Of a DNA stretch of 64,000 nucleotides, positions 44,578 through 61,967 are shown piece after piece. Where the stretch lies: assembly GCA_944322815.1 (NCBI GenBank), contig CALUQB010000009.1, positions 12,027-76,026 of the forward strand, given 5' to 3'. Positions within the stretch are counted from its first letter, which is position 1. Every line of letters begins with the position of its first letter. The position numbers were made by a program, and so were the translations under genes. The notes beneath the pieces are model-generated. The model ran no database searches, had not been told where the DNA came from, and was given only the letters and a program-made list of their open reading frames with translations. The stretch comes from an uncultured Bacteroidales bacterium. Its GTDB lineage: Bacteria > Bacteroidota > Bacteroidia > Bacteroidales > UBA932.

Positions 44578-44611
44578 CCTGAAACTGCTGCGGGCAACAA
44601 GGTTACACATT

Positions 44612-44647
44612 AAAAAAACGGCTTGAAAAATCTTCAAGCCGTTTTTT
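44612..44647. terminator. Bidirectional terminator
   Basis: A7-CGGCTTGAA-AAATC-TTCAAGCCG-T6 between convergent genes. Confidence 0.88.
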
Positions 44648-44671
44648 ATCTGCAATTCTGACAATTTTGAA

Positions 44672-44914: not shown

Positions 44915-44978
44915 AATGTTAAGAATTTAATTAATTAATAAGTTTATGTTTAATACACTTAAAATCACAATCTGGGCG

Positions 44979-44986
44979 CAAAGATA
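44979..44986 (-). promoter_or_regulatory. -7 promoter element for acpP
   Basis: TATCTTTG 64 nt upstream of the ATG. Confidence 0.7.
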
Positions 44987-45013
44987 GAAAATTTTTGCGA
45001 AAAAACGAACAAA

Positions 45014-46804
45014 TCAGGAATTTAACTCATCATGTATTCTCCTGGCAAGCTCCGCACCTACCATTCCGGACAAGTCATCAACGGATGCCGCCGCTATTCT
45101 GGAGACACTGCCATAGTGCAGGATGAGACGCTGCTCGGTCTTTTCGCCTACGCCCTTAATCTCCCTGAGGGCCGAACGGATCTGGGCCTTGCTCCTGAGA
45201 TTCCTGTGATGAGTGATTCCGAATCTGTGCGCCTCGTCACGGATATGTTGCATGACTTTCAGTGCCTGCGAGTTCCTGTCGAGAAACAAAGGATGCGGGT
45301 CCCCCACCCTGATGATCTCCTCAAAACGCTTCGCCAGTCCCACTACTGTAAGCCGGTCCGCTATGCCGAGCTCATACAAGGCCTCGTACGCACATCCAAG
45401 CTGTCCTTTTCCACCGTCGATCACGATGAGCTGGGGCAGATCGTCAGGAGCTTCACGCAGCATCCTGGAGTAACGTCTGTTGACTATTTCCTTCATGGAC
45501 GCGAAATCGTTCGGTCCCACGACAGTCTTGACATTGAAATGCCTGTAGTCCTTTTTGGAAGGGACGCCGTCTCTGAAAACCACGCATGAAGCCACCGGAT
45601 TGGTTCCGGAAATGTTGGAGTTGTCGAAGCACTCGATGTGCACAGGGAGTTCCTTCATGCCGAGCGCCGTCTGCAGCTCCTCCAGGACCTTGCGTCTGAA
45701 CTCGTCAGGATCAGTATGTTCCTTCTGCTTGAGAGAGTTGAACCTCATCTCCTTCGCATTTTTCAGGCTGAGTTCGAGAAGTGCCAGCTTGTCACCTTTC
45801 ATAGGAATGCGGAATTCTACGCCGGCTATTTCGACATCAGGCTTGAACGGTACGATGACTTCTCCCGACAAGGCTCCGAACTTCGACTGGATTTCGGCAA
45901 GGAATATCCCCAGAACCTCTGCCCGGTCCTCTTCGATATTCATCCTGAATCCAAGATTCAAAGACTGTATCACCGCCCCGTCCTTCAACCGCATGAAATT
46001 TCCGTATGCCTCATTCGAATCGAACACAAGGGAGAACACATCCACGCTCCCTATCACGGTATTCACGATAAGTGACTTGCTGTAATGCTTCTCCAGCGAA
46101 ACCATCTTTTTCCTGTACTCCTCCGCCGCCTCGAAATCCAGCCGTTCCGCCGCTTCCGTCATCTGTTCTTTCAGATGCCTTATCATTTCCCGTCCGCCTC
46201 CTTTCAGGAGCCGGACAATGTCTTCGATATTGCCGTTGTATTCTTTCGCTGAAATACCACCGACACAGCAACCCTTGCACCTGCCTATATGAAAGTCCAG
46301 ACAAGGCCTGAATTTTTTCTTCATGATGGCATCGGACGTGATCTTCAGGGTACAGCTGCGCAGCGGATAAAGTTCCGTAAAAAGCTCAAGCAGATTCCTC
46401 GCATGCATTACCGAACTGTACGGTCCGAAATATCTGGAACCGTCCCTGACCATCCTTCTGGTCAGATACACCCGCGGAAATTCATCGGCACTGACGCAGA
46501 TCCACGGATAGGTTTTGGAATCTTTCAGCAGGATATTGTACTTCGGCTTGTACTGTTTGATCAGATTGTTTTCGAGAAGAAGGGCGTCAGCTTCGGAATC
46601 CACGACGGAGTATTGCGCATCGGCTATCTTGGAGACCATGATGGCAGTCTTGCGGGTCAGCCTGTCGGGCGAGACGAAATACTGGGCCACCCGCTTGTGC
46701 AGATCCTTCGCCTTGCCGACATAAATGACGTTTCCCTCGGCGTCATAGTATCTGTAGACGCCGGGGGAATGCGGGAAAAGGGATATTTTTTCCTTTACGG
46801 TCAT
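45014..46804 (-). CDS. uvrC: Excinuclease ABC subunit C
   Basis: GIY-YIG (PGVYRY...YVGKAKDL), IECFDNS, IDGGKGQ, HhH. Confidence 0.97.
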   Translation of the reverse strand: MTVKEKISLFPHSPGVYRYYDAEGNVIYVGKAKDLHKRVAQYFVSPDRLTRKTAIMVSKIADAQYSVVDSEADALLLENNLIKQYKPKYNILLKDSKTYPWICVSADEFPRVYLTRRMVRDGSRYFGPYSSVMHARNLLELFTELYPLRSCTLKITSDAIMKKKFRPCLDFHIGRCKGCCVGGISAKEYNGNIEDIVRLLKGGGREMIRHLKEQMTEAAERLDFEAAEEYRKKMVSLEKHYSKSLIVNTVIGSVDVFSLVFDSNEAYGNFMRLKDGAVIQSLNLGFRMNIEEDRAEVLGIFLAEIQSKFGALSGEVIVPFKPDVEIAGVEFRIPMKGDKLALLELSLKNAKEMRFNSLKQKEHTDPDEFRRKVLEELQTALGMKELPVHIECFDNSNISGTNPVASCVVFRDGVPSKKDYRHFNVKTVVGPNDFASMKEIVNRRYSRMLREAPDDLPQLIVIDGGKGQLGCAYEALYELGIADRLTVVGLAKRFEEIIRVGDPHPLFLDRNSQALKVMQHIRDEAHRFGITHHRNLRSKAQIRSALREIKGVGEKTEQRLILHYGSVSRIAAASVDDLSGMVGAELARRIHDELNS

Positions 46805-46830
46805 GATCTCATCTCCACACCGGGCAAAGA

Positions 46831-49071
46831 CTATATTCCGATCTCATCGAGAATATACCCCATACCGGCATACCTGTCCAGAACCCAGAGAACATATCTG
46901 ATGTCCACGCAGACGCATTTCGTATAGCCGTCCACATAATAGACATCCGAAGCCAGAGACTCTTTGTTTCCGTCGAAAGCCAGACCTATCAGTTCGCCTT
47001 TCGAATTCATCACCGGAGAGCCTGAATTTCCTCCTGTAATATCGTTGTCCGTAAGGAAATTAACATGCATGCTGCCGTCCTTGTCAGCCCACCGGCCCCA
47101 GTCGCCTTCTTCAAGAAGTTCCAGCTGACGGTCTTCCATACCGAACTCATAGGAAGACGGATCATATTTTTCAAGGACTCCATCGGTAGTGGATCTCCAT
47201 GACCATGTCACGGCATCATAGGGTCTGATATCGCCTACGGTACCATAGGTGATCCTCATGGTGGAATTGGCATCAGGATACTGAGGTCTTCCTTCCTCCA
47301 GAGACTTGCGGTACATGGCATGGGTATATTCCTTGTCCAGAGACAGGATATCAGGCGTGCCTTCGACTGCAGCTATCCGCCTGTTCAGGGTGATGATCTT
47401 CAGATCCTGGAAGAACCGGTACATAGGGTCGGCAAGATATTCGTCAACAGTATGCTCTTCCGAAATGAAGGCTTCCAGCCTGGACTTGTCGGTCAGGATA
47501 CTGCCGTTCCAGAGATACTCCGTCATGGCGTCATAGTCGCATTGCCCGTCAGGGCCCGAAAAACGGGAATAAAGCTCTTTCTGCCAAGGACCGATGACGG
47601 AGTGGCTGATATTCTCATAAAATTCGCGGACAGAATAACGGAAAAGGTCTTTCTCCACGTCCGGTACGATGTGGTCATACTCTCCGAGAAGATTCTTCCT
47701 GACGGCATCATAGTCCATGCCGGAGAATCTGTAACACCGGCAGAAATTCAGTTCAGTAGAATCGGGACCACCTTTCTCGATGACCGTATGCATCCTGATG
47801 CGGTTTTTCTTGAGGACCTCACGCTTGAGCAGGTTGAGCCTGGTGGACATCCGGGACAGTGCCGTTCCTCTCACAAGCGTTTCTCGATAGTAGTTTATGT
47901 CTCTTTCGGCTTCTTCGACATCAGCATACTTCCTGTCCAGCATAGGGATGACTTCTCCCCATCTGGACTTACGTTCCGGATCGGCATCTATCCATGCCTG
48001 CAGGTCCCGTTCCTGAGCCGCCTTGCTCTCCACGACACCGAAGCGGCGTATGTTCTTCTCCTTTCCGCAGTTCATCTCCTGGACATTGCTCAGCCCGAAA
48101 TAGTAGTCGGAATATTTAAGTCTGATGGAAGGATCCGTATTCATCCAGCGGTTAACTATCGCCATCTGCTCTCCGCGAAGTCTGTTGGATATGGGCAGAG
48201 TGACTCTTTCCTCGAAATTCACCTCGGCGGACGAGCTGTACCTGTTCGTACGGCCGGGATAGCCTATGACCATGGTGAAATCGCCGGGTTTGTACCCTGC
48301 TGTGGAAACAGTCAGCTTCATCTCAGGTTTCAGAGGTATGTTGTCCTCCGAATATCCGGCAGGAGAGCCGTCCGGAGCCGTATAGATGCGGTACATGGCG
48401 AAGTCGCACTTGTGCTGGGGCCATTCCCAGTTGTCGATATCTCCGCCGAAAGCAGCGAAGGACACAGGCGGAGCAGCTACCAGACGTATGTCCGAATACA
48501 CCTTGTAGAACATCATGTAATATTTCTCGCCGCCCCACATTGAAGCCAGGGAAACATCCACACCGTCGGCCCCTGACCTGTACTTTTTCTCTATCTCGAA
48601 ACTTATCTTCCGCATACCGAAACGCTTTCCCTGCTGCCTGAACTCTTCCTGCATGGCATTCACCTCGTCAGTGACGTCCAGGACCTTCTTCAGGAAATAC
48701 ATGTTCTTCCCCGGTATAGGAATCTCCTCGTCACGGGACATGGCCCAGAAGCCGTCTTCAAGATAGTTCTTCTCATCAGTACTCAATGCATGCACATCGC
48801 TGTATGCACAATGATGGTTTGTGATGACGAGGCCGGCATCCGATATCACGCTGCCGGTACAGCCGAAATCAAGGGATACTACGGCATCCGATATCGTAGC
48901 CCCTTCCGCATCGGCATTGTATATTTCATTCGCGGACAGTTTCAGCCCGCGCTTTTTCATCTGCTTCTCCAGGGCCTTGTCGATACCGTTTATCATCCAC
49001 ATCCCTTCGTCAGCCCATGAGAGAGTCATTCCCAGGCAGAAGACTGCCAATACTGATATCAATTTTTTCAT
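46831..49071 (-). CDS. S46-family dipeptidyl peptidase (DPP7-like)
   Basis: ADEGMW, TNHHCA, DITGGNSGSP; Gly at Ser+18 (FDG, DPP7-type rather than DPP11 FDR); start moved to 49071. Confidence 0.93.
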   Translation of the reverse strand: MKKLISVLAVFCLGMTLSWADEGMWMINGIDKALEKQMKKRGLKLSANEIYNADAEGATISDAVVSLDFGCTGSVISDAGLVITNHHCAYSDVHALSTDEKNYLEDGFWAMSRDEEIPIPGKNMYFLKKVLDVTDEVNAMQEEFRQQGKRFGMRKISFEIEKKYRSGADGVDVSLASMWGGEKYYMMFYKVYSDIRLVAAPPVSFAAFGGDIDNWEWPQHKCDFAMYRIYTAPDGSPAGYSEDNIPLKPEMKLTVSTAGYKPGDFTMVIGYPGRTNRYSSSAEVNFEERVTLPISNRLRGEQMAIVNRWMNTDPSIRLKYSDYYFGLSNVQEMNCGKEKNIRRFGVVESKAAQERDLQAWIDADPERKSRWGEVIPMLDRKYADVEEAERDINYYRETLVRGTALSRMSTRLNLLKREVLKKNRIRMHTVIEKGGPDSTELNFCRCYRFSGMDYDAVRKNLLGEYDHIVPDVEKDLFRYSVREFYENISHSVIGPWQKELYSRFSGPDGQCDYDAMTEYLWNGSILTDKSRLEAFISEEHTVDEYLADPMYRFFQDLKIITLNRRIAAVEGTPDILSLDKEYTHAMYRKSLEEGRPQYPDANSTMRITYGTVGDIRPYDAVTWSWRSTTDGVLEKYDPSSYEFGMEDRQLELLEEGDWGRWADKDGSMHVNFLTDNDITGGNSGSPVMNSKGELIGLAFDGNKESLASDVYYVDGYTKCVCVDIRYVLWVLDRYAGMGYILDEIGI

Positions 49072-49087
49072 AATAAAAATATCATGG

Positions 49088-49220
49088 GATGAGAGAGGGT
49101 GGGTCAAAAGGTGGAATTTTAAGGCCTGCGAAGATGAGAAAACCGCAGTGTACTGGCGTACATGAGGATTTTCGAATCAAGTATAACGCAGAAAGTACCC
49201 TTTTGACTCACCCTCTCATC
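49088..49220. mobile_element. MITE/REP-like element with terminal inverted repeats
   Basis: GATGAGAGAGGGTGGGTCAAAAG (49088-49110) versus CTTTTGACTCACCCTCTCATC (49200-49220); internal palindrome TGTAC-TGGC-GTACA. Confidence 0.65.
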
Positions 49221-49226
49221 AATAAA

Positions 49227-51239
49227 TTATTCTGCCGGTTTTACAATGCCTTTTTTGTCAAAGCTGAGCTTGGCTGGAGTCTCGCGCACGTCATCTTTCG
49301 CATATGTGATGGTCCACGTCTCCTGATTCATCAGATTCCAGAGTTCGTCCTCTGTCATAGGCGCGGCATAGCGGATCCTGATGGCCGGCACCAGATCGTC
49401 ATTCAGGACGAGATAGATTCCGATGATGTTCTCATTGTGGGACAGATGATTGCTCAGATACGGCATATTCCTGAGGATGATCGGTTTCTCATAGTCAGGA
49501 TCGGCGATTTCGTAAATATATTGCGGCTGGTCCGCAAACTTTTCCACACGTGCCCTGAATTCGGCCTTGAACGGATTGAAGAGCATCCGTATCAGGTCTT
49601 CGGTCGGGATATAGCTGACGCTATCTTCCAGGTCCACGAATTCGAAATCCACTTCGGTATCCTTCGTTCCGCCGCCATGGACAGGCATGGACAGGACCTT
49701 CATCTCCACGATGTTCCTGAACCAGTCGCGGTCCGGGTTCTCTGAAGGGTCCATATACACATGCACGATGAGAGGACAGGCGAATTCCGATGTAAGTCCG
49801 TATATCTTCTTGCCGGACAGTCTCATCTGGAGGCCGAGGTAATTCAGATCAAGCTTGTCGTACATCTTCTCTGTCCTGATGGTCATGACCTTCACGCTGT
49901 CCACGGCTGCAGGATCAGGAGTGTTCACACGGAATTTCGAAGGTACGTAGATACTCTCCTGTATCTGTTCCGCAGTGATTTTCGCAGGATCGTAAGTGAT
50001 GATCACATAATGATGGTTCACGAATGTCTTCACTCCGTGCACGCCTGGAATCTTTTCGAGTTTGGCCTTGAACGCCATGGAGCTTCCATAGCATTTCACA
50101 GAACGGAGGCCGTCTATCCTTAATTCGGTCAGGGACTCCGGGTCTATGAGCTGCGTCACGGTACCGTCCTCGGCTATGGATTCGATGCCCCAGGTCTCGT
50201 CGATGGTAGGAAGTTCGAACTTGTTCCCTATCCACATGCCCAGAATGACCAGAAGCACGGCGATGAGAGCCGGAAGATATTTTCCGAAACCGGATCTGTT
50301 CTTCTGGCATACTCCGATATGAAGGGCCCCGGTAGGACATGCCGCCACACATTCGCCGCAGAGAGTACAATCCACTGAATTCAGTCTGCCGCCGCTGAGA
50401 TCATCCACATCGATACCGTAAGGACAGTTCTTGTTGCAGATGCCGCAATGCGTACATGAGCCGGCAGTCTTGATGACATTAAGTATCTGATATTTCGGTT
50501 TCCTGTTCAGGATTTCAAGCAGATATCCGACTATGCAGAAAAGCGCCAGAAGCACCCACCAAGGGATATTCGCACCCAGCAGGTCCAGCACCCACCAGAG
50601 ACCGAAGAGGACGATGATCCATATCCAGAACTTGAGGGAGTTGGAAACGGCCCCGAGCGGACAGAGATATTTGCACCAGAACATGTTTATGAACAGGCCG
50701 CCGAGAATCAGCATGCAGACGGTCACTATGGACATCCATAGAGTGATTTCTCCCTGGAATCCGGTAGCTACGGCATAATACGGGTCCAGATTCTTGCAGA
50801 AAAGTTCGCTGGCCGTAGCTGTCATGTAGAAAATCCAGAATACCAGTCCGTATTTTATGATTCTCAGGACAGAGTCGGCTACAGAACCGTTTCTGACGGT
50901 GACACCTCTTATGTTCAAGGACTTGCGTATTTTCATCAACAGATCCTGTACTGTTCCCAGCGGACAGAGATAGCCGCAGAAAAGTTTGCTGAACAGGACG
51001 ACGGCAGCAGCCAGCATTATCCCCATCATGATCTGCAGGGAACTCATGCTGCACGGCAGGGAGCCGTTCACGAAATAAGTGGTCAGGGCCTGCAGGCCGC
51101 CTACAGGACAGTAGGCCTCAGGGTCAGCCGGTTCCTTGCCCGGAATGATTCCTGTCAGGAACAATACCAGAGCCGCAAGCACTCCCCACTGGAGGAGGTA
51201 TTTCGGCCAATTCTTGATAATGGTGGATTTTTTTGCCAT
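49227..51239 (-). CDS. Membrane polyferredoxin (NapH/MauN-like) with extracytoplasmic HMA-like domains
   Basis: FCGYLCP, WCKYLCP, CTHCGICNKNCP, CTLCGECVAACP; a further TM segment, then a domain with KCYGSS. Confidence 0.85.
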   Translation of the reverse strand: MAKKSTIIKNWPKYLLQWGVLAALVLFLTGIIPGKEPADPEAYCPVGGLQALTTYFVNGSLPCSMSSLQIMMGIMLAAAVVLFSKLFCGYLCPLGTVQDLLMKIRKSLNIRGVTVRNGSVADSVLRIIKYGLVFWIFYMTATASELFCKNLDPYYAVATGFQGEITLWMSIVTVCMLILGGLFINMFWCKYLCPLGAVSNSLKFWIWIIVLFGLWWVLDLLGANIPWWVLLALFCIVGYLLEILNRKPKYQILNVIKTAGSCTHCGICNKNCPYGIDVDDLSGGRLNSVDCTLCGECVAACPTGALHIGVCQKNRSGFGKYLPALIAVLLVILGMWIGNKFELPTIDETWGIESIAEDGTVTQLIDPESLTELRIDGLRSVKCYGSSMAFKAKLEKIPGVHGVKTFVNHHYVIITYDPAKITAEQIQESIYVPSKFRVNTPDPAAVDSVKVMTIRTEKMYDKLDLNYLGLQMRLSGKKIYGLTSEFACPLIVHVYMDPSENPDRDWFRNIVEMKVLSMPVHGGGTKDTEVDFEFVDLEDSVSYIPTEDLIRMLFNPFKAEFRARVEKFADQPQYIYEIADPDYEKPIILRNMPYLSNHLSHNENIIGIYLVLNDDLVPAIRIRYAAPMTEDELWNLMNQETWTITYAKDDVRETPAKLSFDKKGIVKPAE

Positions 51240-51309
51240 AATCTGATATCTTTAAATTGTTGTTTGTCTTGTCACTCGGAATAAGGATTCCTGCAAAAAG
51301 GAGGAACTG

Positions 51310-54150
51310 TCATTCTTCCCGGTATATCGCCACGAACCTGTCACCTTCCGCCAGCCTGGCAGCGAATTTCCGGACATCGGCAGCCGAAACCTTGTTCACT
51401 GTCCCGGCGTAATCATAGCCGGAACTGACTTCGTATCTCACGAAATCGCACGCTTCCGTATTTCTCGCACGCAGGGAGTTGGCATCGCGGGCCGCCTTTT
51501 CTCCATGATGCTTCACCAGATACTTCTTCGCCTCATCGAGTTCCCGGTCCGTAGGGCCTTCCGAAGCCATGGCAGCCATCACATCCTCCACGTCAGCGAC
51601 CAGAATATCCGTCATTTCCGGACGGGTCTGGAAATACACTGTGGATTCGAATACTCCGCCGTCAGCATAATCCAGTTCCGTACTGAAACTCACATGATAT
51701 GTACCGCCCCGGACTTCCCTGATCTGCTTCATATATCTGGCGGACATGATATAATCCATGATTTCCACACAGGCCATATCTTCCGGCTTCAGGCGGATTT
51801 TTCCCTTGAAACTGTATGTCACCTCGCTCTTAGGCACGGTCTCCACATCATAGCTGCGGTCGAGGACAGTACGTCCCTTGTAAACCGGCTGCGGGATTTC
51901 AGTGTCGGACATTGCAGCCTCTGCGCCTGACGGCAATGACGCGATGTATTTCTCCACGAAAGATATGATTCCAGACCTGTCCATGTCGCTGGAAACATAT
52001 ACGGTCATGCGGCTGCAGTCACCGAAACTGCGTGCGAATATCTTTTTCACGAAATCCATATCCACAGCCTCGACTGCCGTGCTGTCAAAACCCGCCATCC
52101 ACGGATGCGAACCATATCTGACATCTTTCTCCAGCTCTTCGAACCTGTCAGCGGAAGTGCTCTTTCCAAGCGACCTGAGAGTACTCTGTTTCGTTTTCCC
52201 TAGAGCCGCATCAGTGGAAAAATACGGATCAGTAAGGATACCGTAAAGCATTCCGAACCCTTTCTCCATGCTTTTTCTGTCGGTATTCACAGACAGTGTC
52301 GAAAATCTCCTGTCTATGGACGAGGTGACATTCAGACCGGAACACTCCGGGCTGTTCTTCAAGGCCGTATAGTCATGGCCGGAAAAACCGAGAGAACGGC
52401 CTATGTAGCCTGCCGCGAATTTGGCAGAGGATATACTGTCCTGAGGCAGGGCATTGTATCCGGTATCGGAAAAGAGCCTTATATCCAAATGGACATTGGA
52501 GCTGACAGGCTCCGACGGGGTCCAGACGACCCTGACGCCATTGGACAGAGTCCACAATTCACTGGAAGTGCCTTTTACCGGCGATATTTCCGATATTGCC
52601 CCGGGTACGGGGTCAAAACCGAAATCTATCTTCTCGAATTCGAGATATTCGGGACGGATATCCGAAGCCGCGGTCCGGGCGATGATTTCACGCATCCTGT
52701 CCGGTGTAGGAATCAAGTCTTCCTCGCTCTCGTTCATACACCATGAATAGATTTTCTCGCTGTCCCCGAACATTTTCCGTTCATAGCCTTTCACGTCTTC
52801 CATGGTCATGTCGGCAAGTATCATCTTCTGCGCCTGCTTCATGTCATACGGATTCGCGGCGGAGAAACCTCTGAGGAAATTCTCCTTGCACACCTCCACG
52901 ATCTCACGGTCAGTGACTTCCGAAGGGAAATATTCCATATTCAGGCGGTATTTCTTCATTACCTGAGACCTGGCTGCCTCGAATTCATCTTCGGTGAAGC
53001 CGTACCTGAGCATCCGTTCCGTTTCTTCGGTGTAGAACTCAAGGGCTTCCTCCAGATTTTCAGGACCTTTCACCGAAAGAGTGAAAAGCGAGATGTAGAA
53101 ATCGTCGCTGTACGGGCTGGTAACCAGCACTGCGGAAGAAAGCGGACTTCCTGATTTCCGGCTGTGTTCCCTCATCCTGTCGCCCAGAATATACGTCACT
53201 ATCTGTCTGGCATACAGATCCTTGTAGTACGCATCCGTATTCCGCAGCCCTTCCGGCGGGAAAGGCTGTCTGTGGATGACCTTCAACACATGGTAGCTGA
53301 CCTGCGGGTCGAGCATGTTCTCGAAAAGGGGCTCCTGCAGAGACGGAATACCATACACTCCTTTCGGCTCCGGATTTTCCCGTGCAGGTATGTCGGAGAA
53401 CATGTCGCGGACCTTCGTCTCCATCTGCCCCGCATCGAAGTCCCCGACCACGACTATGGCCTGAAGGTCAGGCCGATACCACCTGTGGTAAAAATCCAGT
53501 ATCTCGTGAGGCTTGAATCCGTTTATGACCTCCAGCGTACCTATGACACTCCTCTGCGCATGCTTCGAACCTTTGTACACCAGCTCGTTCTGCTTCGCGC
53601 TCATCCTCAGGCGAGGTTCGTCTTTTCTGCGCCATTCTTCACTGATCACTCCCCTTTCCGCATCAAGAGCCTCAGGCTCGCAGGATATGTCGCACGACCA
53701 GTCGTGCAATACCATCAGCACCGAGTCCACGAAAGATTCGCGTACAAGCGGCACTGAGGAAATGTTATAGACTGTCTCTGTCCTGTTCGTATATGCGTTC
53801 ACATTGTAGCCGAAACGGACTCCGTCCTTCGCCAGGAAATTCAGGATTTCCTGGTCCGGATAATGGCGCGTACCGTTGAACGCCATGTGTTCCAGAAAAT
53901 GGGCGAGACCGTTCTGGTTGTCCTCCTCCTGGAGGGAGCCGACATTGTGGACGATATAGAAGTCTGCACAGCCTGCAGGATTTTCATTGTGCCGAATATA
54001 ATATGTCAGGCCGTTCTCCAGACGGCCCTTGATCAGTTCCGGGTCATCGGGGATGACTGTCTGTGCCCGTCCCGTGACGGGCAATACTGCCATAAGGAAA
54101 ACTATCGCCGATATTATTTCTGTCACTCTTTTCATACCTGTGAAATTCAA
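51310..54150 (-). CDS. M16-family zinc protease (PqqL-like), signal peptide
   Basis: HFLEHMAFNG inverzincin motif, NAYT, ERGVISEE; four-domain length; start 54150 or 54135. Confidence 0.95.
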   Translation of the reverse strand: MNFTGMKRVTEIISAIVFLMAVLPVTGRAQTVIPDDPELIKGRLENGLTYYIRHNENPAGCADFYIVHNVGSLQEEDNQNGLAHFLEHMAFNGTRHYPDQEILNFLAKDGVRFGYNVNAYTNRTETVYNISSVPLVRESFVDSVLMVLHDWSCDISCEPEALDAERGVISEEWRRKDEPRLRMSAKQNELVYKGSKHAQRSVIGTLEVINGFKPHEILDFYHRWYRPDLQAIVVVGDFDAGQMETKVRDMFSDIPARENPEPKGVYGIPSLQEPLFENMLDPQVSYHVLKVIHRQPFPPEGLRNTDAYYKDLYARQIVTYILGDRMREHSRKSGSPLSSAVLVTSPYSDDFYISLFTLSVKGPENLEEALEFYTEETERMLRYGFTEDEFEAARSQVMKKYRLNMEYFPSEVTDREIVEVCKENFLRGFSAANPYDMKQAQKMILADMTMEDVKGYERKMFGDSEKIYSWCMNESEEDLIPTPDRMREIIARTAASDIRPEYLEFEKIDFGFDPVPGAISEISPVKGTSSELWTLSNGVRVVWTPSEPVSSNVHLDIRLFSDTGYNALPQDSISSAKFAAGYIGRSLGFSGHDYTALKNSPECSGLNVTSSIDRRFSTLSVNTDRKSMEKGFGMLYGILTDPYFSTDAALGKTKQSTLRSLGKSTSADRFEELEKDVRYGSHPWMAGFDSTAVEAVDMDFVKKIFARSFGDCSRMTVYVSSDMDRSGIISFVEKYIASLPSGAEAAMSDTEIPQPVYKGRTVLDRSYDVETVPKSEVTYSFKGKIRLKPEDMACVEIMDYIMSARYMKQIREVRGGTYHVSFSTELDYADGGVFESTVYFQTRPEMTDILVADVEDVMAAMASEGPTDRELDEAKKYLVKHHGEKAARDANSLRARNTEACDFVRYEVSSGYDYAGTVNKVSAADVRKFAARLAEGDRFVAIYREE

Positions 54151-54160
54151 TGTTATCTGA

Positions 54161-55771
54161 TCAGAACGCGCAGCCGATGGTGACTGTGAAAATATTCCTC
54201 CATCCGTCTGCGAGGAATTCAGGTTTTTTCAGGGTATGGTTATAGGTATCTTTCACATCAATGTAGGCCGAGAATTTGTCTCCGAACAGTCTCGTGTATC
54301 TGAAAGACAGAGTCCCGGCGACCCTGGCAGCCGTATCGTACTCGAAGTCCCTGTAGAGATAGCTGTCGACAGTCCTGTGGCTGTCGGATGCACTTGCGGT
54401 GTATGTGCCGTCCTCATTCCTGATGCCGGAGCCGGCATATCCGTCAGCCGCCAGGCCGGCTGTGAAAATATTCTTCCCTGCAATGAAATTTCTCTGCCCG
54501 TACAGGCGGATATTTATCGCAGTAAGGCTCCTGTCACGATAGAAAGGATAATATGTGGCTCTGGAAATGCTGTATTCGCCTGCAGCGGACACACCGTATT
54601 CCCATTCAGGGCGGAACCGGCTGATACCAAGATATCCGGTATACGCCAGCCGGCCAGCGAAAGTATGTTTCTTCAATATCTCGTTCTGGCCGAAATATTC
54701 GACAATGGTGCTTCCTCCGGGGACGGTGGTCCTTCTGTAGATATTTTCATAGTTTTTCAGCCCTGAATATTCCGCCGACAAAGATACCCGGTGCAGGATT
54801 CCTGCCTTATGAATGTCCAGACTGCCGTCATATTTGGCCGAATGGCCGCCGAATTCACAATATATGGCCGAACCGGGAGCCTTTTCTCCATAGTGGCCCG
54901 TCCTGTACCTGTAAGAAAGTTCGTTAAAGAAAAGGATATCATCCCTGTCTCCGAAAGCAAGCTGCAATGCACCGCCGTAAAAGCTGTTCACCATAGGTCT
55001 GCCTGGAGATGTGGTCTTGATATATCCCAATGTACCCTCGAGACCTTCGACAGTCCCGAAATACCCTCCGTAATCCACAAATGTATAATACTGTCGGTCG
55101 GTAGTTCCGAATATATTGCAGTCCAGATCTTCGGTCGTACGCCTGTACAGGAAATTCAAGCCTGCCGAAAAGTCATCCGATGCGGCCAGAGCAACCCCTG
55201 CAGAAATACCGAGATCCATCCATCTGCTTCTCGGACGCGGGTCCTTTCGCTTAGCATAGTCGCCTGCCTCATAAGAAATCTCTGCACCGATGGTCCATCT
55301 CCCGTCCAGTCTGTAAGACATCCCTCCCAGCAGGGAATAAAGTTCCTTGACTTTCGTGCCTGGATTGTCTTCCGAATTTTCCAGGAAATTTATAGGATTG
55401 TAGGACGGATCCATCAGATAATGCCCTCCCATGTTCCGGCCGGAAAAATATGAGTAGGAAAGAGCGCCATGAAAAGCGATCCTGTCCGATATTCTGACAA
55501 AGGATTCCGTCCCGGCTCCGGCCTGCCAGCTGTTATCCGAGCCCTCTACGGGAATCAGGCCTCCGTCTTCCTTGTCGAAAAATGCCTCTACGAAAGATGT
55601 CCTGCCTACCTGCAGAGTGTTGAGACCTGCGGCGTTGGTACTTGTCAGCCATGGATTCGACGTCTTTATGAAGTCGAAATCATAAACGTTTTTCTGCATA
55701 TTCCGGCCTTCCGCCCTGAAAGCAAGGGCGAGCAGAAACAGAAGCGGTATGTATATTTTCAATCTGTACAT
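54161..55771 (-). CDS. DUF6850-like outer-membrane beta-barrel
   Basis: Signal peptide, NPWLTSTNAAGL, KRKDPRP, C-terminal Phe; follows DUF4876. Confidence 0.75.
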   Translation of the reverse strand: MYRLKIYIPLLFLLALAFRAEGRNMQKNVYDFDFIKTSNPWLTSTNAAGLNTLQVGRTSFVEAFFDKEDGGLIPVEGSDNSWQAGAGTESFVRISDRIAFHGALSYSYFSGRNMGGHYLMDPSYNPINFLENSEDNPGTKVKELYSLLGGMSYRLDGRWTIGAEISYEAGDYAKRKDPRPRSRWMDLGISAGVALAASDDFSAGLNFLYRRTTEDLDCNIFGTTDRQYYTFVDYGGYFGTVEGLEGTLGYIKTTSPGRPMVNSFYGGALQLAFGDRDDILFFNELSYRYRTGHYGEKAPGSAIYCEFGGHSAKYDGSLDIHKAGILHRVSLSAEYSGLKNYENIYRRTTVPGGSTIVEYFGQNEILKKHTFAGRLAYTGYLGISRFRPEWEYGVSAAGEYSISRATYYPFYRDRSLTAINIRLYGQRNFIAGKNIFTAGLAADGYAGSGIRNEDGTYTASASDSHRTVDSYLYRDFEYDTAARVAGTLSFRYTRLFGDKFSAYIDVKDTYNHTLKKPEFLADGWRNIFTVTIGCAF

Positions 55772-55796
55772 GGTAATCTTTTTAATCTGTCAGGTA

Positions 55797-57110
55797 TCAG
55801 TCCTTCAACGATGAGATTCTCCGCTGATGGAAATCCGCGGAAGAATTGTTGGTCTCCATATAGACGATATGTGCACCGTTTGCGATGGATGCCTCCGCAT
55901 CTATGCCGGACGGGTCCGTAGAACCGTATGCATGGTCTGTCCCGTCAGTTCCTCCCGCATAACCGTACACGAGTCTGCCTTCGTTTTCAGGGAGAGCCTC
56001 CGTAGCCTCCTTATCCACATTGCGGTAAAGGGTGTAGCCTCTGTCTGAAGTATGATATATGTAGCCGGCATCTATGTCTGAAGTAAAGCGTTTGCTGTTG
56101 CTGCTTTCATAGCCTCCACGGAACACCTCTATACCGTCCAGGACCCATGACCTGTCCACTTTCACGACAGGAAGTTCCGCACTTTCGGTACGGTCATAAT
56201 TGACATCGTTCTTTGTATACTCTTCGATGTCGGAATACTCCAGGATATAAAAGGCCGGGCTGGTGTTGGAAACAGGCCATGCATTGCCCTTGCCGTACAG
56301 GAATGTCTGAAGATAGTGAGACGGCTCTATGTTGTCGGAAGGATTCGGATACATATTCTGGCTGTATTTGTCCCCGAAGGCTTCCGGGTCATACATGGCA
56401 TAGTATTCCGGCCGGCTCAGGTCTACCGACTGGCTGTATGTAGCAGTATGATCTATGGCACCGTTGATAGCCACCACGATCTGCGAATACGGAGGAATGA
56501 CCACTTCCGTCTCAAACCACCATATATTCCATCCTGCCGGAATCCATCCTTCGGAATCATATAGCAACTGCCCGTCCTTGAGCCATCTGTTGCTGGCATT
56601 GCTGTTTGCAGGGGTGACGAAAGCGAAGCCGACATCGCCGGCATCCACGTCCGTATCGCTGTTGTTATACAGAATGACATATTTGTCATAGTTATACGCA
56701 CCGCTGCCGTCATCTTTCTGGCATCCGCCTATGTACAGTTCCTTTATGATCAGAGCCTTCGGCTTTACTTTCATAAGCTCCAGTTCCATCCGCCCGTCAT
56801 CACCGGATGCGATGGTGACCGATGCATTGAGATTGTATATGTAATCATCCGTCTTGAATGAAGCGCTTACGGTATACAGTCCGGGAAGCAGGGAAAATGA
56901 CGCCACGCCTGCCTCGGTTTCCGCTTCATACGAAACGGAGTTGTTCGATGTGGAGACAGATACGGTGATACCGTCTTCGGAATAGATTTCCCCGTCGCTC
57001 ATCAATACGAAATCCACGTTCACAGGCGGTATGCTGGAAGACAAGTCACACGAGAAAACCGCTCCTGAAAGTATAAGGCTTATAAACAATATATATTTTC
57101 TCATCATCAT
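55797..57110 (-). CDS. DUF4876 lipoprotein
   Basis: Lipobox VFSC; LIIKELYIGG, DKYVILYNN, AINGAIDH, ETNNSSADF. Confidence 0.85.
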   Translation of the reverse strand: MMMRKYILFISLILSGAVFSCDLSSSIPPVNVDFVLMSDGEIYSEDGITVSVSTSNNSVSYEAETEAGVASFSLLPGLYTVSASFKTDDYIYNLNASVTIASGDDGRMELELMKVKPKALIIKELYIGGCQKDDGSGAYNYDKYVILYNNSDTDVDAGDVGFAFVTPANSNASNRWLKDGQLLYDSEGWIPAGWNIWWFETEVVIPPYSQIVVAINGAIDHTATYSQSVDLSRPEYYAMYDPEAFGDKYSQNMYPNPSDNIEPSHYLQTFLYGKGNAWPVSNTSPAFYILEYSDIEEYTKNDVNYDRTESAELPVVKVDRSWVLDGIEVFRGGYESSNSKRFTSDIDAGYIYHTSDRGYTLYRNVDKEATEALPENEGRLVYGYAGGTDGTDHAYGSTDPSGIDAEASIANGAHIVYMETNNSSADFHQRRISSLKD

Positions 57111-57138
57111 ATGCCGTTTGAAATTTCTGCAGTCATCG

Positions 57139-60120
57139 CTAAAACTTAAGCCTCAATGTAAGACCATAGTAAAAATTCGTGATATACCTGTACATCTGTA
57201 CATAGTCACCGGTCTTGGACGAACGTATGCGACTGTAATTGTTGAAGAAATTATTCGCATAGAACGATATGGATGCCAGATCCCCTATCTCCTTGGTCAC
57301 GCTGAAATTCATCGAGAAATACGGAGTGAGATATTCCTTGTTGTAATAATAGTCAAGGTTGCTGACATACGCCATCCTGGAGAGATCCGAATACATCTGC
57401 TGATCATTGTTTCTCGCCCATAGAAGATCTTCGTAATAGTTACGGTGCGTCGAAGGATCATCGTAAGTCGTATAATATTCCGGATACACCACGGCATAGC
57501 AACTTCCGTCATAGACAGAAGCATCCGTTATGGAGAGTATGTCACCATTGTCCGAGAGGACATGGGAACGGTTTCCGCTGCTCTGCTCGCTGAGCATACG
57601 CATATATCTGAGCAGGGTCGCTTCCAGTCGCAGGGAAAGTATCATCCTGACCTTCGGGATATGGGTGGTTATGGTCAGATTGGTGTTCAGCTGCCGGTTT
57701 TCCCTGCCGTTCGACAGGGTGCGGCCTCCTGTGAAATAACCGATATAGCTGTATGGCTGGCCGTCGGCACCGTTTCCATTATAGGAATACGCTTCCACGT
57801 TTTCATCTGTCGAACGGTATCCATAGTATGAACCGTCCAGACGGATAGTGGTGTTTATCGGATTTATTCTCTTGAAGTCCACGACCCATTCTACTCCGTA
57901 TCTGGTGATGGGATTAAAGGTATTGCTTGCATATACGGTTTCATTGAACCGTTTGCGTACAGAGTAGTCAAGCTGCTCGTCCGGCAGTGCCCCGGTCACG
58001 TCCGATACCGTAACCATGCCGGTCTCCCTGTCCACTTCGAACTGTCTGTTTTCAGCGGGAATGCTGCAGGAAGAAAGGGCATCGATGGAGGTATAGGCGA
58101 ATGTAAATCTGTCATAGTCGCTACTGAGACGGAATGCATCGATGGTTCTGTTGTAATATCCGGCCAGGGATATCTTGTTTCCGGCGATGTCTATGTCAAA
58201 CCCGATTTCAGACTGCCGGTTCTTCTGCCAATGCAGGTCCGGATTATACTCGATTGCATGAGGTATGATATAATAGGCGGAATATGCATGGCCGGCAGAA
58301 GTGGAAGTGGATGCGAACGTATTTATGTATGTGTATTCGGGTATCGGATAAAGTATGGAATACGAAGGCATCTTGGTAGCCACGCCCCAGCTTGCCCTGA
58401 AAGACAGTTCACGGACAGTCTTGTTCCACCGGTCCTTGGGAGAAAGGATCGTGTATTTCAAATTGAACCGCGGAGAAAGGCTGGATGTCGTGCCGTATAC
58501 GGAATTTCTGATAATGGTGTTGTCGTTTCTGATTCCTGCTATGACATTCAGTCTTGTTTTCCCTATGGGAATGGTAATATTCTCCTCGATATATGCCGCG
58601 ACATTGTTCATGGACGGAATATCGCAATAACGGTATTCCCAGAAATCATCAGCAGTCGCCATGTTCTCCGTATACTGGCCTATTCCGAAATTTCCGTCGG
58701 CAGACCAGTCGGCTCCGACCTTGAGTTTGTTGTTTATTTCACCGAACTGTCTGGCCCAGGTAGCCTTGAATTTCAGACCGTAGTTTATAGGCCTGTCATC
58801 CACACACATGGTCTTGTACCAGTATCCTGCCGGACGGAGGATGACTGCGGCATCGGGATCTTCTTCATAATACCTGGCCATATAATACCCTTCATCCGTA
58901 CCATGGACAGCCGGAGATGCCTGTGCCCAGTTGTCATTCTCATGTTCGCGGCTGTGCTTGTCACTATATACCACGGAACCGCTCAGTTCCACGTTCGTTA
59001 TCCACTTTTTGCTTAGAAGCCAGTCAAATGAAAAGTTACCACGGAAAGAGTTGTCGCGGACTGTAGTCCTGTTTTCCGAAAATGCGTCAGGATCGGCCTT
59101 GGTATCCATGCCGCCTATATTTCCTGAAGCGCTGACGGAGAAGCGGAGCGGAGTTTCGCTGAACAAGCCCCTGTCGAACAGGTTGCTGTAAGTCAGCTGC
59201 ACCTGCTTCCTGTCATAGGATTCATATGGGGATCTCTGGTCACTGGTAGCCAATGTATATTCCAGGCTGGCATTCAGGATTCCTTTTGATGCCCCGGATT
59301 TGGTTTCCCCAAGTCCGAAACCTTTGCTGGCGGAAACTTGCTTCATATTAGGGTTCGTAGAAAAAGTGACAGTATACGGTGTCCGCCCTTTCCTTGTATT
59401 GATTTTCACCACTCCGGATGTCATGTCACCGTATTCCACAGAAGGGACTCCGGTGATGACTTCTATGGACTCAACATTCGTGGATGCCACATTATTCACC
59501 GCAATGCCTGATACTCCGGATGATGAAAATGCGGCAAAGCTTCCGTTATTCGAAAGCCGGACTCCGTCCACCTCGACTGCAGTTCCGAAAGATGCGTTGC
59601 CGCTTTCGGCATCCGCGCCAGACCTGATATTGAAGACCTGCGTCTCCGTCAGATCCGGATTCCGTGTCGCACCGCCAGGAAGAAGACCGGAAACGTCAGC
59701 CACATTCAGCATCTGGATATGATCGAGAGCTGTCTTGTCTATGGTCCGGCTGGTAGTGGCGCTGTTGCTGTTGTCCTGAGCCGTCACCACTACGCTTTCG
59801 AGGGTCAGGTTATCTTCCGCAAGCGATATCACGTATTTGGGAATATCCTTGGTTATCACTATCTCTTTCGTATCAGTAACAAAACCGAGGCACGATATGC
59901 TGATCGTGTTCTTGCCTGGCTGGACATTCTGGATAGTGAAATTTCCGTTTGCATCGGCCACGGCCCATTGTTCCGTATTTTCAAGGACTACCGTAGCATA
60001 TTCGACCGGTTCGCCGGTATTTTTATTCAACACGACACCGCTGATGTAGTATGTGTCCTGCGCAGAAACATCTGCGAGGAAAAATACCAGAACGCTTATT
60101 ATTGTTATGATCCGTTTCAT
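57139..60120 (-). CDS. TonB-dependent receptor (non-SusC type)
   Basis: CarboxypepD-like N-domain, LESVVVTA, VEVITGVPSVEYGDMTSGVV, C-terminal LKF. Confidence 0.93.
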   Translation of the reverse strand: MKRIITIISVLVFFLADVSAQDTYYISGVVLNKNTGEPVEYATVVLENTEQWAVADANGNFTIQNVQPGKNTISISCLGFVTDTKEIVITKDIPKYVISLAEDNLTLESVVVTAQDNSNSATTSRTIDKTALDHIQMLNVADVSGLLPGGATRNPDLTETQVFNIRSGADAESGNASFGTAVEVDGVRLSNNGSFAAFSSSGVSGIAVNNVASTNVESIEVITGVPSVEYGDMTSGVVKINTRKGRTPYTVTFSTNPNMKQVSASKGFGLGETKSGASKGILNASLEYTLATSDQRSPYESYDRKQVQLTYSNLFDRGLFSETPLRFSVSASGNIGGMDTKADPDAFSENRTTVRDNSFRGNFSFDWLLSKKWITNVELSGSVVYSDKHSREHENDNWAQASPAVHGTDEGYYMARYYEEDPDAAVILRPAGYWYKTMCVDDRPINYGLKFKATWARQFGEINNKLKVGADWSADGNFGIGQYTENMATADDFWEYRYCDIPSMNNVAAYIEENITIPIGKTRLNVIAGIRNDNTIIRNSVYGTTSSLSPRFNLKYTILSPKDRWNKTVRELSFRASWGVATKMPSYSILYPIPEYTYINTFASTSTSAGHAYSAYYIIPHAIEYNPDLHWQKNRQSEIGFDIDIAGNKISLAGYYNRTIDAFRLSSDYDRFTFAYTSIDALSSCSIPAENRQFEVDRETGMVTVSDVTGALPDEQLDYSVRKRFNETVYASNTFNPITRYGVEWVVDFKRINPINTTIRLDGSYYGYRSTDENVEAYSYNGNGADGQPYSYIGYFTGGRTLSNGRENRQLNTNLTITTHIPKVRMILSLRLEATLLRYMRMLSEQSSGNRSHVLSDNGDILSITDASVYDGSCYAVVYPEYYTTYDDPSTHRNYYEDLLWARNNDQQMYSDLSRMAYVSNLDYYYNKEYLTPYFSMNFSVTKEIGDLASISFYANNFFNNYSRIRSSKTGDYVQMYRYITNFYYGLTLRLKF

Positions 60121-60155
60121 ATATGCTGATTTTTCTGTTGGACAAATCCTGACGG

Positions 60156-61967
60156 CTACTGTTCAGGCTGACGGAGGATATCGCCGTGATCACGTACTAC
60201 GGCTTCCTTCCACTTGTCCGTATAGCCCGGATTCGTTATGCCGTCAGGAATCCTGTCGGAATATCCGTTCGTGACGAAGGAACCGTCAGGATTCTGTGCT
60301 TTGACGTTTCCGTCCATGAACTTCACGAGCAGGAAGATCTCCAGATCCGCCCACTCCCGGAATATGCCCTGTGCAGTGCCGACAGAATAGTCTGTCAGAA
60401 AATCTTTCACCTCGACAAACGGATCAGGGACATTCTGCACTTCGTCATTCCTTCTTATCTGCTTCCGGGGTGTATCAAGGGCTTTCTGATACAGAGCCAT
60501 GGCCTGAATGTCTATTTCAGGGATGAGAGACATCTGGGCATTCTCGAAATCATCGGCTTTAGCCCTGACTACAGGGGCCATTACGTTGTACATTCTGTAG
60601 CAGGCATTGGCCACGCGGTTGCATATCCAGAATGCCGAAGTCGGGGAATATTCGAGGATACTGCCATTGCCCTCTGCGAAGCAGTCGGGCACCTTATTGA
60701 TATTGGTATATATCGGAGTCAGATACGAAGTGGCGGCATCGTCCGTACCGAACCAGAGCAGGCCGCCTATCACATCGGGTAGCCAGCCGCGTGACTGTCC
60801 CACGAACCAGAATCCGGTCTGCTGGGTGGCTATCGCACGTTCGTTTACGTAAACATGGCCTTCATATTCGAAGTCCATCGGTCTCCAGCGGTACGGAAGT
60901 GCATTGCCTCCGGCACCTATATCTGCGGTCATATCCATCGGAGTGCCTTCGAAATGGTCACGCATCACGTCAGCAACGTCTTTCATGGTGATTTTCCGTG
61001 ACGGTTTCACAAAGAGGGGGAAACGTTTCGATGCATCATACCCCATGGCATAATCGATAAAGTCGTAGGCATCCATGGTCACTTCCTTTCCGTTTTCATC
61101 CTCGAACGTAAACTGCCCGTCGCAGAGGATATTGAAAGCTGACCAGGCACGGGCTTCGCAGCCACGCATGGCACCGAAATTCAGCGGATTATATGCATCG
61201 CAGAAACTGAAGTCCTCGTCTTTTCCGTCAAAGTACCCCATCTCCCTGGCAAAAGAGATGACATCCGGCGCATAGAGACAGTTCTCCGGGTCGTCAAGGG
61301 GGAAGGTACTGATTCTGGACTGGTTCGCATGGGCGCATATATAGCCGTCCGGCAATCTTCTGGCCACCCAGACTATGCCTCTGTTAGCATTTTGTCCGTT
61401 TTCCTCCCTGTAGCCTTTCCCGATGAGGTCCATGACCCAGACTTCATCCTTGTCCGCGATGGAGAATGATTCCCCGCTGGAATAGTAGCCGTAAGTGTTC
61501 GCCAGGTCGACTATGATGCTTATGGCTTCACGCGCTGTTCTGGCACGTTGGAGAGTGGTGAAGATGAGTGAGCCGTAGTCCATGACCCCGGTGGAGTCAA
61601 AGAGTTCCGTACGCCCTCCGAACGTGGATTCGCCGATGATGAGCTGGTGCTCGTTCATGTTTCCGACTGTCTGGTAAGTATACGGCACCTGTGGGATCTC
61701 GCCGAGGAATTTTCCGGTGTCCCACTCGTATATTTTCAGCATCTCGCCTTTTTCATGGCTGGCCGCCGGGCGGAAATACAGTTCTCCGAAAAGGGTATGC
61801 GAGTCTGCCGCGTAGGAAACCATGCAGGAGCCGTCTGCGCTGGCACCTTTGGAAATGAGGACATTCGTGCAGGCATCCGCGTCATGGGCTGCGGACATGC
61901 TCAGCATCGCGGCTGCAAGGCTGGCAAGCAAGGGGGAGATAAGTGATGTTTTCCTGTCCATTTGCAA
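60156..61967 (-). CDS. C69-family dipeptidase
   Basis: Signal peptide then CTN (Ntn Cys nucleophile), MNEHQLIIGESTFGG, HANQSRI. Confidence 0.93.
   Translation of the reverse strand: MQMDRKTSLISPLLASLAAAMLSMSAAHDADACTNVLISKGASADGSCMVSYAADSHTLFGELYFRPAASHEKGEMLKIYEWDTGKFLGEIPQVPYTYQTVGNMNEHQLIIGESTFGGRTELFDSTGVMDYGSLIFTTLQRARTAREAISIIVDLANTYGYYSSGESFSIADKDEVWVMDLIGKGYREENGQNANRGIVWVARRLPDGYICAHANQSRISTFPLDDPENCLYAPDVISFAREMGYFDGKDEDFSFCDAYNPLNFGAMRGCEARAWSAFNILCDGQFTFEDENGKEVTMDAYDFIDYAMGYDASKRFPLFVKPSRKITMKDVADVMRDHFEGTPMDMTADIGAGGNALPYRWRPMDFEYEGHVYVNERAIATQQTGFWFVGQSRGWLPDVIGGLLWFGTDDAATSYLTPIYTNINKVPDCFAEGNGSILEYSPTSAFWICNRVANACYRMYNVMAPVVRAKADDFENAQMSLIPEIDIQAMALYQKALDTPRKQIRRNDEVQNVPDPFVEVKDFLTDYSVGTAQGIFREWADLEIFLLVKFMDGNVKAQNPDGSFVTNGYSDRIPDGITNPGYTDKWKEAVVRDHGDILRQPEQ

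Follow-up and report, generated by a model that had tools for sequence, protein, structure and literature searches.

The analysed window is a stretch of 64,000 nucleotides (nt) of contig CALUQB010000009.1 (assembly GCA_944322815.1, forward-strand positions 12,027 to 76,026) from an uncultured gut Bacteroidales bacterium, whose 2.68-Mb metagenome-assembled genome is 94% complete. Open reading frames (ORFs) were called and scanned against Pfam and NCBIfam to identify the genes between 46.8 and 62.0 kb. Seven ORFs were found there, all on the minus strand, in the order C69 dipeptidase, TonB-dependent transporter (TBDR), DUF4876 lipoprotein, DUF6850 barrel, M16 metallopeptidase, Fe-S protein (membrane polyferredoxin), and S46 dipeptidyl-peptidase (DPP). 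The six genes from the TBDR to S46 are considered here as a candidate uptake-and-digestion system. The features of the region, with lengths in amino acids (aa) where relevant, were as follows:

60156-61967, minus strand: exported C69 dipeptidase (PF03577, 262 bits)
57139-60120, minus strand: TBDR, 993 aa (CarboxypepD_reg and Plug domains)
55797-57110, minus strand: DUF4876 surface lipoprotein, 437 aa (PF16215, 66.9 bits)
54161-55771, minus strand: DUF6850 outer-membrane beta-barrel, 536 aa (PF21012, 177 bits)
51310-54150, minus strand: exported, two-lobed M16 metallopeptidase (Pfam M16 and M16_C)
49227-51239, minus strand: membrane polyferredoxin (Fer4_5/dicluster), 670 aa (Pfam/NCBIfam Fer4_5, NapH, NosR, CcoG)
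49072-49226, minus strand: dispersed palindromic repeat that looks like a mobile element (RNA fold and copies elsewhere in the genome)
46831-49071, minus strand: exported S46 dipeptidyl-peptidase, DPP7 type (PF10459, 644 bits)
45014-46804, minus strand: UvrC, with which the same-strand run continues 26 nt past S46

From C69 to S46, the intergenic gaps measured 35, 28, 25, 10, 70, and 155 nt, and neither SusD nor a carbohydrate-active enzyme was found within the seven-gene row by these ORF calls and scans. In all of this, as well as in the identity, order, and strand of the seven genes, the results agreed with the initial annotation of the row, which had left out UvrC, though it lies on the same strand. 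The 10-nt gap between DUF6850 and M16 was reproduced for a TTG start of M16 (54150), but its relatives begin at the equivalent of an ATG at 54135 (MKRV...), which is likely the true start and would widen the gap to 25 nt. Inspection of the N-termini revealed signal peptides on C69, TBDR, DUF6850, M16, and S46.

TBDR, DUF4876, and DUF6850 co-occurred as an invariant trio in all related loci examined. The TBDR consists of a signal peptide, an N-terminal CarboxypepD_reg domain, a TonB-box-like stretch (LESVVVTA), a plug, and a barrel, and was not assigned to the SusC type because its score against the SusC model TIGR04056 (81.6 bits) was far under the cut-off (368.25). A phmmer search of all 993 aa against all PDB chains, which include the FusA and YddB structures (per PMC6793856), gave no match at E ≤ 0.01. 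The DUF4876 gene lies on the same strand 28 nt from the TBDR, and its product (PF16215 cut-off 27.9 bits) carries a lipobox cysteine, Cys21, after the signal peptide; the orthologues show canonical A-V-S-C or A-T-A-C lipoboxes. The protein matches PDB entry 4q1z (“putative lipoprotein”, E-value 7e-7) and is the putative lid of the transporter. Such a role for DUF4876 at non-SusC transporters was proposed from AlphaFold-Multimer models and conserved proximity in a study that reported no phenotype (bioRxiv 10.1101/2023.03.17.533168). The third member, DUF6850, has a signal peptide and a C-terminus (...GCAF) with Phe as the final residue. Its AlphaFold2 model (predicted local distance difference test (pLDDT) 88.3; predicted template modelling score 0.84) comprises about 18-20 long antiparallel strands and short N-terminal helices, and was matched by Foldseek to generic outer-membrane barrels only (FadL, TonB-dependent transporter barrels, AlgE; TM-scores 0.3-0.4). 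No sequence match was obtained in the PDB, and no paper mentioning the family was found in the literature. The modelled barrel and the C-terminal Phe support the assignment of DUF6850 as a second outer-membrane barrel, and the initial annotation had named it a DUF6850-like one.

From its TTG start, the M16 protein is 946 aa long, with HFLEH at residue 84 and ERGVISEE downstream. Full-length matches in the PDB were 9ldy as the best (6.5e-105), for which no paper was found, PqqL (6ofs, 4e-59, residues 32-877), and FusC (6b03/6b05/6brs, ~4e-45); going by sequence, the enzyme is of the PqqL/FusC type with the HxxEH motif intact. The S46 protein has a mature N-terminus of DEGMW, the catalytic GNSGSP at residue 693, and a Gly 18 residues past the catalytic Ser, which we take to be the P1-specificity position of the Gly/Arg rule for DPP7/DPP11, placing the enzyme with the DPP7 type; against the NCBIfam model Dpp7 it scored 541 bits and did not reach the equivalog cut-off of 1200. 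Second copies of both M16 and S46 are present elsewhere in the genome. A second transporter-plus-protease locus was also observed in this genome (L094, G000 contig C52, 333-9743, minus strand; L and G numbers are our own handles for loci and genomes), in which a SusC-like TBDR of 1016 aa and a SusD-like protein are encoded together with a DUF4929 lipoprotein, a 953-aa M16, and the haem-binding lipoprotein ChaN (PF04187). In L066, a locus from another family, a DUF6850 trio is likewise followed by M16 and ChaN.

The Fe-S protein is predicted to contain about seven transmembrane helices, with CX3CP at residues 88 and 189, CxxCxxCxxxCP at residues 262 and 291, and the last transmembrane helix at 316-343, followed by a tail of ~325 aa. 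In the AlphaFold2 model, the tail (pLDDT ~90) forms three ferredoxin-like units, the first of which superposes on CopZ, MNK1, and MerP (Foldseek, TMt ~0.7, root-mean-square deviation 1.5-2 Å); the Foldseek search used the whole model and identified this first unit only, not units 2 and 3. The HMA model PF00403 scored 20.7 bits vs a Pfam cut-off of 24.8 bits, and the HMA-like loop reads VKC383YGS386, i.e., CxxS and not CxxC, which is invariant in 18 homologues. The earlier designation as a 4Fe-4S/HMA protein was therefore kept for the 4Fe-4S motifs and the HMA-like fold, but not for a metal-binding HMA domain, given the CxxS and the sub-threshold Pfam score. Conserved cysteines are C44, C63, C148, and C383 (invariant) as well as C488 (nearly invariant), and Cys44, Cys63, and Cys148 are located in predicted periplasmic loops. 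Close relatives in the homologue listing (68-97% identity) are named “4Fe-4S binding protein”. Against the equivalog TIGR02745 (CcoG), the protein scored 32.9 vs 316.7 bits with a match over residues 65-197 only, and against the NapH equivalog 56.4 vs a cut-off of 213. The tail was placed on the periplasmic side because of the NapH/CcoG topology and because it occurs as a secreted protein in L085. This locus (G176:C1, 5290-13666), from the window’s own family, encodes M16, S46, and a 267-aa signal-peptide protein that corresponds to units 2-3 of the polyferredoxin tail, next to a second, divergently transcribed S46; no TBDR trio was seen in the locus, and the nearest DUF6850 match lies ~15 kb away. 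The polyferredoxin tail seems to work with the peptidases in its own right.

Linkage beyond the genus was surveyed in 401 Bacteroidales species genomes, 67 of which carry DUF6850 (PF21012). Each window protein was searched in the other 66 carriers and the coordinates were compared; chance expectations are our own rough Poisson estimates, the statistics ignore kinship, and the adjacency counts are minimum values, as many of the assemblies are in fragments. The Fe-S protein was detected in 14 of the 66 genomes, one of which (G041) is a congener. Its gene lies at most 7 kb from DUF6850 in eight of the 13 genomes from other genera and within 12 kb, in the same cluster, in a ninth; counting the congener, this amounts to nine of 14, with 12 kb in a tenth, vs a chance expectation of ~0.1. 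The Fe-S protein is the most faithful partner of the trio. A PqqL-like M16 was located at most 7 kb from DUF6850 in five genomes from other genera, which represent five families (G363, G278, G380, G299, and G130; expected ~0.6), and S46 at the same distance in six genomes from other genera (G278, G299 (twice), G392, G176, G384, and G137; expected ~1). In L049, L064, and L078, S46 was moreover linked to the Fe-S gene. As a negative control, C69 was near DUF6850 in none of the 57 genomes from other genera having a C69 match at E ≤ 1e-20.

The partner genes are arranged around the trio in several ways. Loci of type A comprise extracytoplasmic function (ECF) sigma and anti-sigma factors, the Fe-S protein, a type IX secretion system BNR propeller, TBDR, DUF4876, DUF6850, an ATP-binding cassette (ABC) ATPase, a 222-aa membrane protein, and DUF4857. 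In type B, S46 and a divergent S9 peptidase lie upstream of FeS-TBDR-DUF4876-DUF6850, with M16 after this block in L061. In type C (L062), the trio is followed by S46, a protein of 181 aa, M16, and an FMN_bind protein that is exported; in its variants (L080-L083), a Met-zincin (DUF4953/DUF5117) and S46 come after the trio, and FMN_bind is present in some of them. Type D (L064) runs from sigma/anti-sigma factors through TBDR, DUF4876, DUF6850, FeS, S46, and a 168-aa protein to M16; in type E (L066), the trio occurs with the haem-binding lipoprotein ChaN and an M16 encoded as a pair of genes; and L065 has the order HEAT, M16, trio, HEAT. The Met-zincin of L080, L081, and L083 lies between DUF6850 and S46, i.e., in the M16 slot. 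The FMN_bind protein is present and the Fe-S gene missing in L062 and L080, which suggests that the former is an alternative, flavin-based periplasmic redox partner. These two proteins (L062 17141-17650 and L080 15125-15646) are exported, 169-173 aa long, and 60% identical across families, and stand at the end of loci that have no polyferredoxin.

Outside Bacteroidales, 400 genomes of the phylum were searched, and 11 encode a homologue of the Fe-S protein over its full length (31-34% identity); in eight of these 11 a DUF6850-like barrel lies 5-12 kb upstream of the Fe-S gene on the same strand. The eight fetched loci from other classes fell into two layouts. The first comprises a sigma factor, FecR, a TBDR with STN domain, a DUF4876/lamin-tail lipoprotein, DUF6850, a BNR propeller, an M28 aminopeptidase, M16, and FeS; the second adds the ABC/DUF4857 module to this set. 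In six of the eight, the Fe-S gene comes immediately after M16 at a distance of 10-60 nt. This order is that of the window, and the two are therefore regarded as an old, conserved gene pair. M16 is itself preceded by the M28 aminopeptidase in L088, L089, and L091, where this enzyme stands in for S46. The genome of the window contains no close homologue of the module of ABC ATPase, 222-aa membrane protein, and DUF4857 or of the BNR parts, and its locus is therefore a reduced version. Gene orders differ between loci (M16-FeS-S46 in the window, FeS-S46-x-M16 in L064, FeS-TBDR...M16 in L037, and M16-S46-tail only in L085), so the linkage is not simply inherited. Rearranged orders together with non-homologous enzymes in the same slots are the pattern of functional coupling and not of descent. 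The peptidase and Fe-S genes thus recur with the TBDR across families and classes in differing orders, which bears out the association supposed at the outset.

Close relatives were compared by tblastn of the window proteins on 31 related loci. The full order C69-TBDR-DUF4876-DUF6850-M16-FeS-S46 was recovered in eight loci, and the shorter loci L056 and L057 keep it as far as each reaches, with DUF6850 48-77% identical across the close-relative loci. By itself, synteny at this distance shows little, the neighbourhood being inherited; its departures from the common order were recorded as follows. An opposite-strand gene for a FISUMP-domain protein stands between C69 and TBDR in L052 and L060, where C69 is therefore not in the TBDR operon. 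The Fe-S gene has moved between C69 and TBDR in L037, and in L043 it adjoins the trio on the opposite strand, with no M16 found in the locus. In L039, L041, and L047, C69 directly adjoins S46, next to a paralogous trio without M16 or Fe-S gene. This paralogous trio, present in the congeners L039, L041, L042, and L047, is ~39% (TBDR) and ~25% (DUF6850) identical to that of the window. It was further observed that the paralogous trio, next to C69-S46, is flanked by homologues of the window’s 571-aa lipoprotein (42862-44577) and FISUMP-domain protein (62178-63086); alternative cassettes of the trio thus occupy one and the same neighbourhood of the chromosome, and the position and strand of the FISUMP gene vary between species.

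On the gene content, the folds, and the conserved linkage reported above, we consider it on balance probable, somewhat above an even chance, that the six genes from TBDR to S46 (46831-60120) form one envelope-spanning uptake-and-digestion system. From the same material we infer which way transport runs, what the cargo and the metal are, and that the Fe-S protein is a reductase. In the proposed mechanism, the non-SusC TBDR with its DUF4876 surface lipoprotein would capture and import the cargo, and the DUF6850 barrel would be an obligate third partner, serving either in surface display of the lipoprotein (like Slam of Neisseria) or as an auxiliary channel. In the periplasm, the M16 endopeptidase and the DPP7-type S46 exopeptidase would cut the cargo to dipeptides. 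At the inner membrane, the CcoG/NapH-like polyferredoxin would move electrons from its cytoplasmic [4Fe-4S] clusters to the periplasmic face, where Cys44, Cys63, Cys148, and the three-unit tail may reduce something carried or released by the cargo, with iron as the most likely target and copper or cargo disulfides as alternatives. Copper uptake, considered for the likeness to CcoG and to HMA domains, would presumably be less likely in a gut anaerobe with no evident cuproenzymes. The cargo is most likely a peptide or small protein bearing a metal or redox cofactor, because redox parts (Fe-S, FMN_bind), ChaN, and FecR/STN control recur at such loci and relatives are regulated by iron. That the locus represents a phylum-wide, evolutionarily independent Bacteroidota machine which steals protein- or peptide-bound redox metal, the peptidase pair destroying the imported carrier, a new class of transmembrane polyferredoxin reducing and handing over the metal by way of its periplasmic cysteines and CxxS-HMA-like domains, and DUF6850 acting in a Slam-like way, is a tentative and rather doubtful extension of this reading.

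Two protease-associated import systems, Fus of Pectobacterium and YddB/PqqL of E. coli, resemble the window in that a TBDR is encoded with an exported two-lobed M16 (here two genes past the TBDR on the DUF4876 side), and the published survey of such systems covered Proteobacteria only (PMC6793856). Sister loci of other classes additionally have an ABC module and FecR/sigma control. The window differs by the addition of the DUF4876 lid, the DUF6850 barrel, the S46 exopeptidase, and the membrane polyferredoxin, and neither a FusB-type TonB nor a FusD/YddA-type ABC importer was found among the ORFs of 44-64 kb. By analogy, the proposed system would be Fus-like in its working; it is not to be counted as a Fus family member, because the transporter sequence is unrelated and FusB and FusD are absent. 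The initial annotation had viewed the locus as an analogue of FusA/FusC and YddB/PqqL, of which the PqqL/FusC type of the M16 stands and homology of the TBDR to FusA/YddB does not, no PDB match at E ≤ 0.01 having been obtained.

Within the phylum, BT1939/BT1938, BT3633/BT3632, and PG1020/PG1019 share with the window a non-SusC transporter followed by a same-strand DUF4876 lipoprotein, but have PepSY_TM or HEAT-repeat proteins where the window has M16, Fe-S, and S46. The type A sister loci share the make-up of BT3625-33 (ABC ATPase, DUF4857), with the Fe-S protein replacing PepSY_TM. Iron depletion induces the TBDR-DUF4876 operons PG1019-22 of P. gingivalis and BT1933-39 and BT3625-33 of B. thetaiotaomicron up to ~200-fold, and BT3625-33 38-128-fold, which ranks them with the strongest responders in these species (PMC10434189). 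What has been described of these operons is their expression under iron and haem limitation. PG1019 and PG1020 rise together with haem-uptake genes and were called uncharacterised in 2026 (PMC13096392). For the Fe-S protein, the likeness is to CcoG (FixG)/NapH, with which it shares the transmembrane core, two CX3CP, two cytoplasmic [4Fe-4S] motifs, the last transmembrane helix, and a periplasmic C-terminal domain. CcoG holds two [4Fe-4S] clusters and a periplasmic domain of unknown role (PMC7558416), which is Ig-like, whereas that of the window protein comprises three ferredoxin-like units (HMA fold with CxxS). The context differs as well, being an importer with peptidases and not a cbb3 oxidase or Nap system.

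Several points weigh against one uptake-and-digestion system of the kind proposed. M16 and S46 are common housekeeping enzymes of proteolytic Bacteroidales, and in about three quarters of the Bacteroidales DUF6850 loci the searches placed no M16, S46, or Fe-S gene nearby; the peptidase-linked form is therefore a subtype and not the whole family. In sequence, the TBDR is without detectable relation to FusA/YddB. The HMA-like unit has no CxxC, so metal binding by it is hypothetical, and CcoG, which comes nearest in architecture among characterised proteins, is a reductase of Cu(II) and not of Fe(III) (PMC7558416). The locus has neither an inner-membrane metal transporter nor a dedicated TonB, and no recognisable promoter or regulator was found for the TBDR. 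As a whole, the first interpretation of the row (capture, import, proteolysis, metal reduction, and peptide catabolism) holds for the linkage of M16, Fe-S, and S46 to the trio, but not for C69, a metal-binding HMA domain, or homology to FusA/YddB.

Some of the same observations would fit uptake of a metal or metal chelate only, with the trio served by the polyferredoxin as an Fe(III) or Cu(II) chelate reductase, in the role of the PepSY_TM proteins in BT3625-33, and with M16 and S46 present by envelope-gene clustering. No other gene is linked to the trio nearly as tightly as the Fe-S gene, and L073-L077 and L079 consist of FeS-TBDR-DUF4876-DUF6850 with ABC ATPase, DUF4857, and an ECF sigma factor and have no peptidase; BT3625-33, of the same make-up with PepSY_TM, shows the 38-128-fold response to iron depletion, and the architecture is like that of CcoG, a cupric reductase. 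What clustering of envelope genes does not account for is that four unrelated peptidase families recur at these loci (M16 in long or paired form, Met-zincin, S46, and M28) and C69 does not, that six loci of other classes have M16 immediately beside the Fe-S gene, and that the Fe-S tail occurs alone in the M16-S46 cluster of L085. We consider this explanation unlikely.

Also unlikely, by a slightly wider margin, is a purely nutritional uptake of oligopeptides without metal, in which M16, S46, and, further downstream in digestion, C69 would process the imported peptides and the polyferredoxin would reduce disulfide-bonded or oxidised peptides or be unrelated. The model for such uptake is RagAB of Porphyromonas gingivalis, a SusC/SusD-type peptide importer that is not known to be encoded with its peptidases. 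RagAB and the DPP network of P. gingivalis parallel the window in TonB-dependent peptide uptake followed by periplasmic S46 in an asaccharolytic member of the Bacteroidales, and differ in having no known second barrel, M16, or Fe-S protein. An endopeptidase paired with an exopeptidase is the constant theme of the loci, the periplasm-side cysteines and the CxxS fit thiol chemistry as well as metal binding, C69 and S46 are adjacent in congeners, and the organism presumably belongs to a peptide-fermenting gut lineage. Relatives of TBDR-DUF4876 are, however, genes of the iron and haem stimulon, the sister loci carry ChaN and iron-type FecR/STN signalling, and C69 is unlinked outside the genus. That there is no functional unit past the trio, the row reflecting inherited synteny in a small genome with short intergenic regions, would agree with the syntenic and functionally unrelated UvrC 26 nt past S46 in six close relatives, the confinement of C69 linkage to the genus, and the flanking of the paralogous trio by the 571-aa lipoprotein, FISUMP, C69, and S46 in congeners, but is very improbable; the linkage spans families and classes, in changed gene orders and with analogous enzymes standing in, which descent cannot explain and which in our view largely refutes this reading.

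So far, TonB-dependent uptake of whole proteins or peptides that is linked to their proteolysis in the periplasm has been demonstrated in Proteobacteria alone (Fus, YddB/PqqL). For iron and haem, Bacteroidota of the gut and mouth rely on scavenging, and their most strongly iron-induced TonB operons (PG1019-22, BT3625-33) have no known substrate or mechanism. The window locus and its relatives tie these orphan transporters to peptidases, to DUF6850 as a third component, and to an uncharacterised periplasm-facing Fe-S protein. The result is a concrete, testable model, in which the M16-FeS pair offers a way to track down the cargo. Should the polyferredoxin turn out to reduce metals or disulfides in the periplasm, it would define a new class of enzymes among anaerobes.

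At the upstream end of the row, the C69 protein has its nucleophile, Cys33, following the signal peptide and is encoded by the only C69 gene in the genome. The initial annotation had counted it among the system components, which was rejected on the grounds that it is unlinked outside the genus and separated from the TBDR by the opposite-strand FISUMP gene in L052 and L060; it is probably a neighbour and not a component. At the other end, UvrC follows S46 in six close relatives, though functionally unrelated; lying only 26 nt past S46, it shows that genes of this genome need not work together for being closely spaced. In the proposed system, C69 and UvrC both count as bystanders.

The 155-nt Fe-S/S46 spacer has a strong predicted fold (-55.9 kcal/mol, z = -6.8), and five more copies of at least 60 nt with 80-93% identity are present on other contigs of the genome. 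In the relative L059, a copy sits between C69 and TBDR. A regulatory RNA was considered and rejected, the element being a dispersed repeat that is placed elsewhere in a relative; it looks like a mobile repeat similar to a miniature inverted-repeat transposable element (MITE) or a repetitive extragenic palindromic (REP) element. A near-consensus -7 box (TATACTTG, 49185) was noticed inside the repeat. A sigma-70 and terminator scan returned 21 promoter-like sites vs 20.7 expected. The search for Bacteroidetes -33/-7 promoters yielded a single strict -7 box in intergenic sequence, at 62034 upstream of C69; the 35-nt gap between C69 and TBDR contained none. The acyl-carrier-protein gene downstream of UvrC (region 44578-46830) has a textbook Bacteroidetes promoter, TTTG...TATCTTTG, with its -7 box at 44986.

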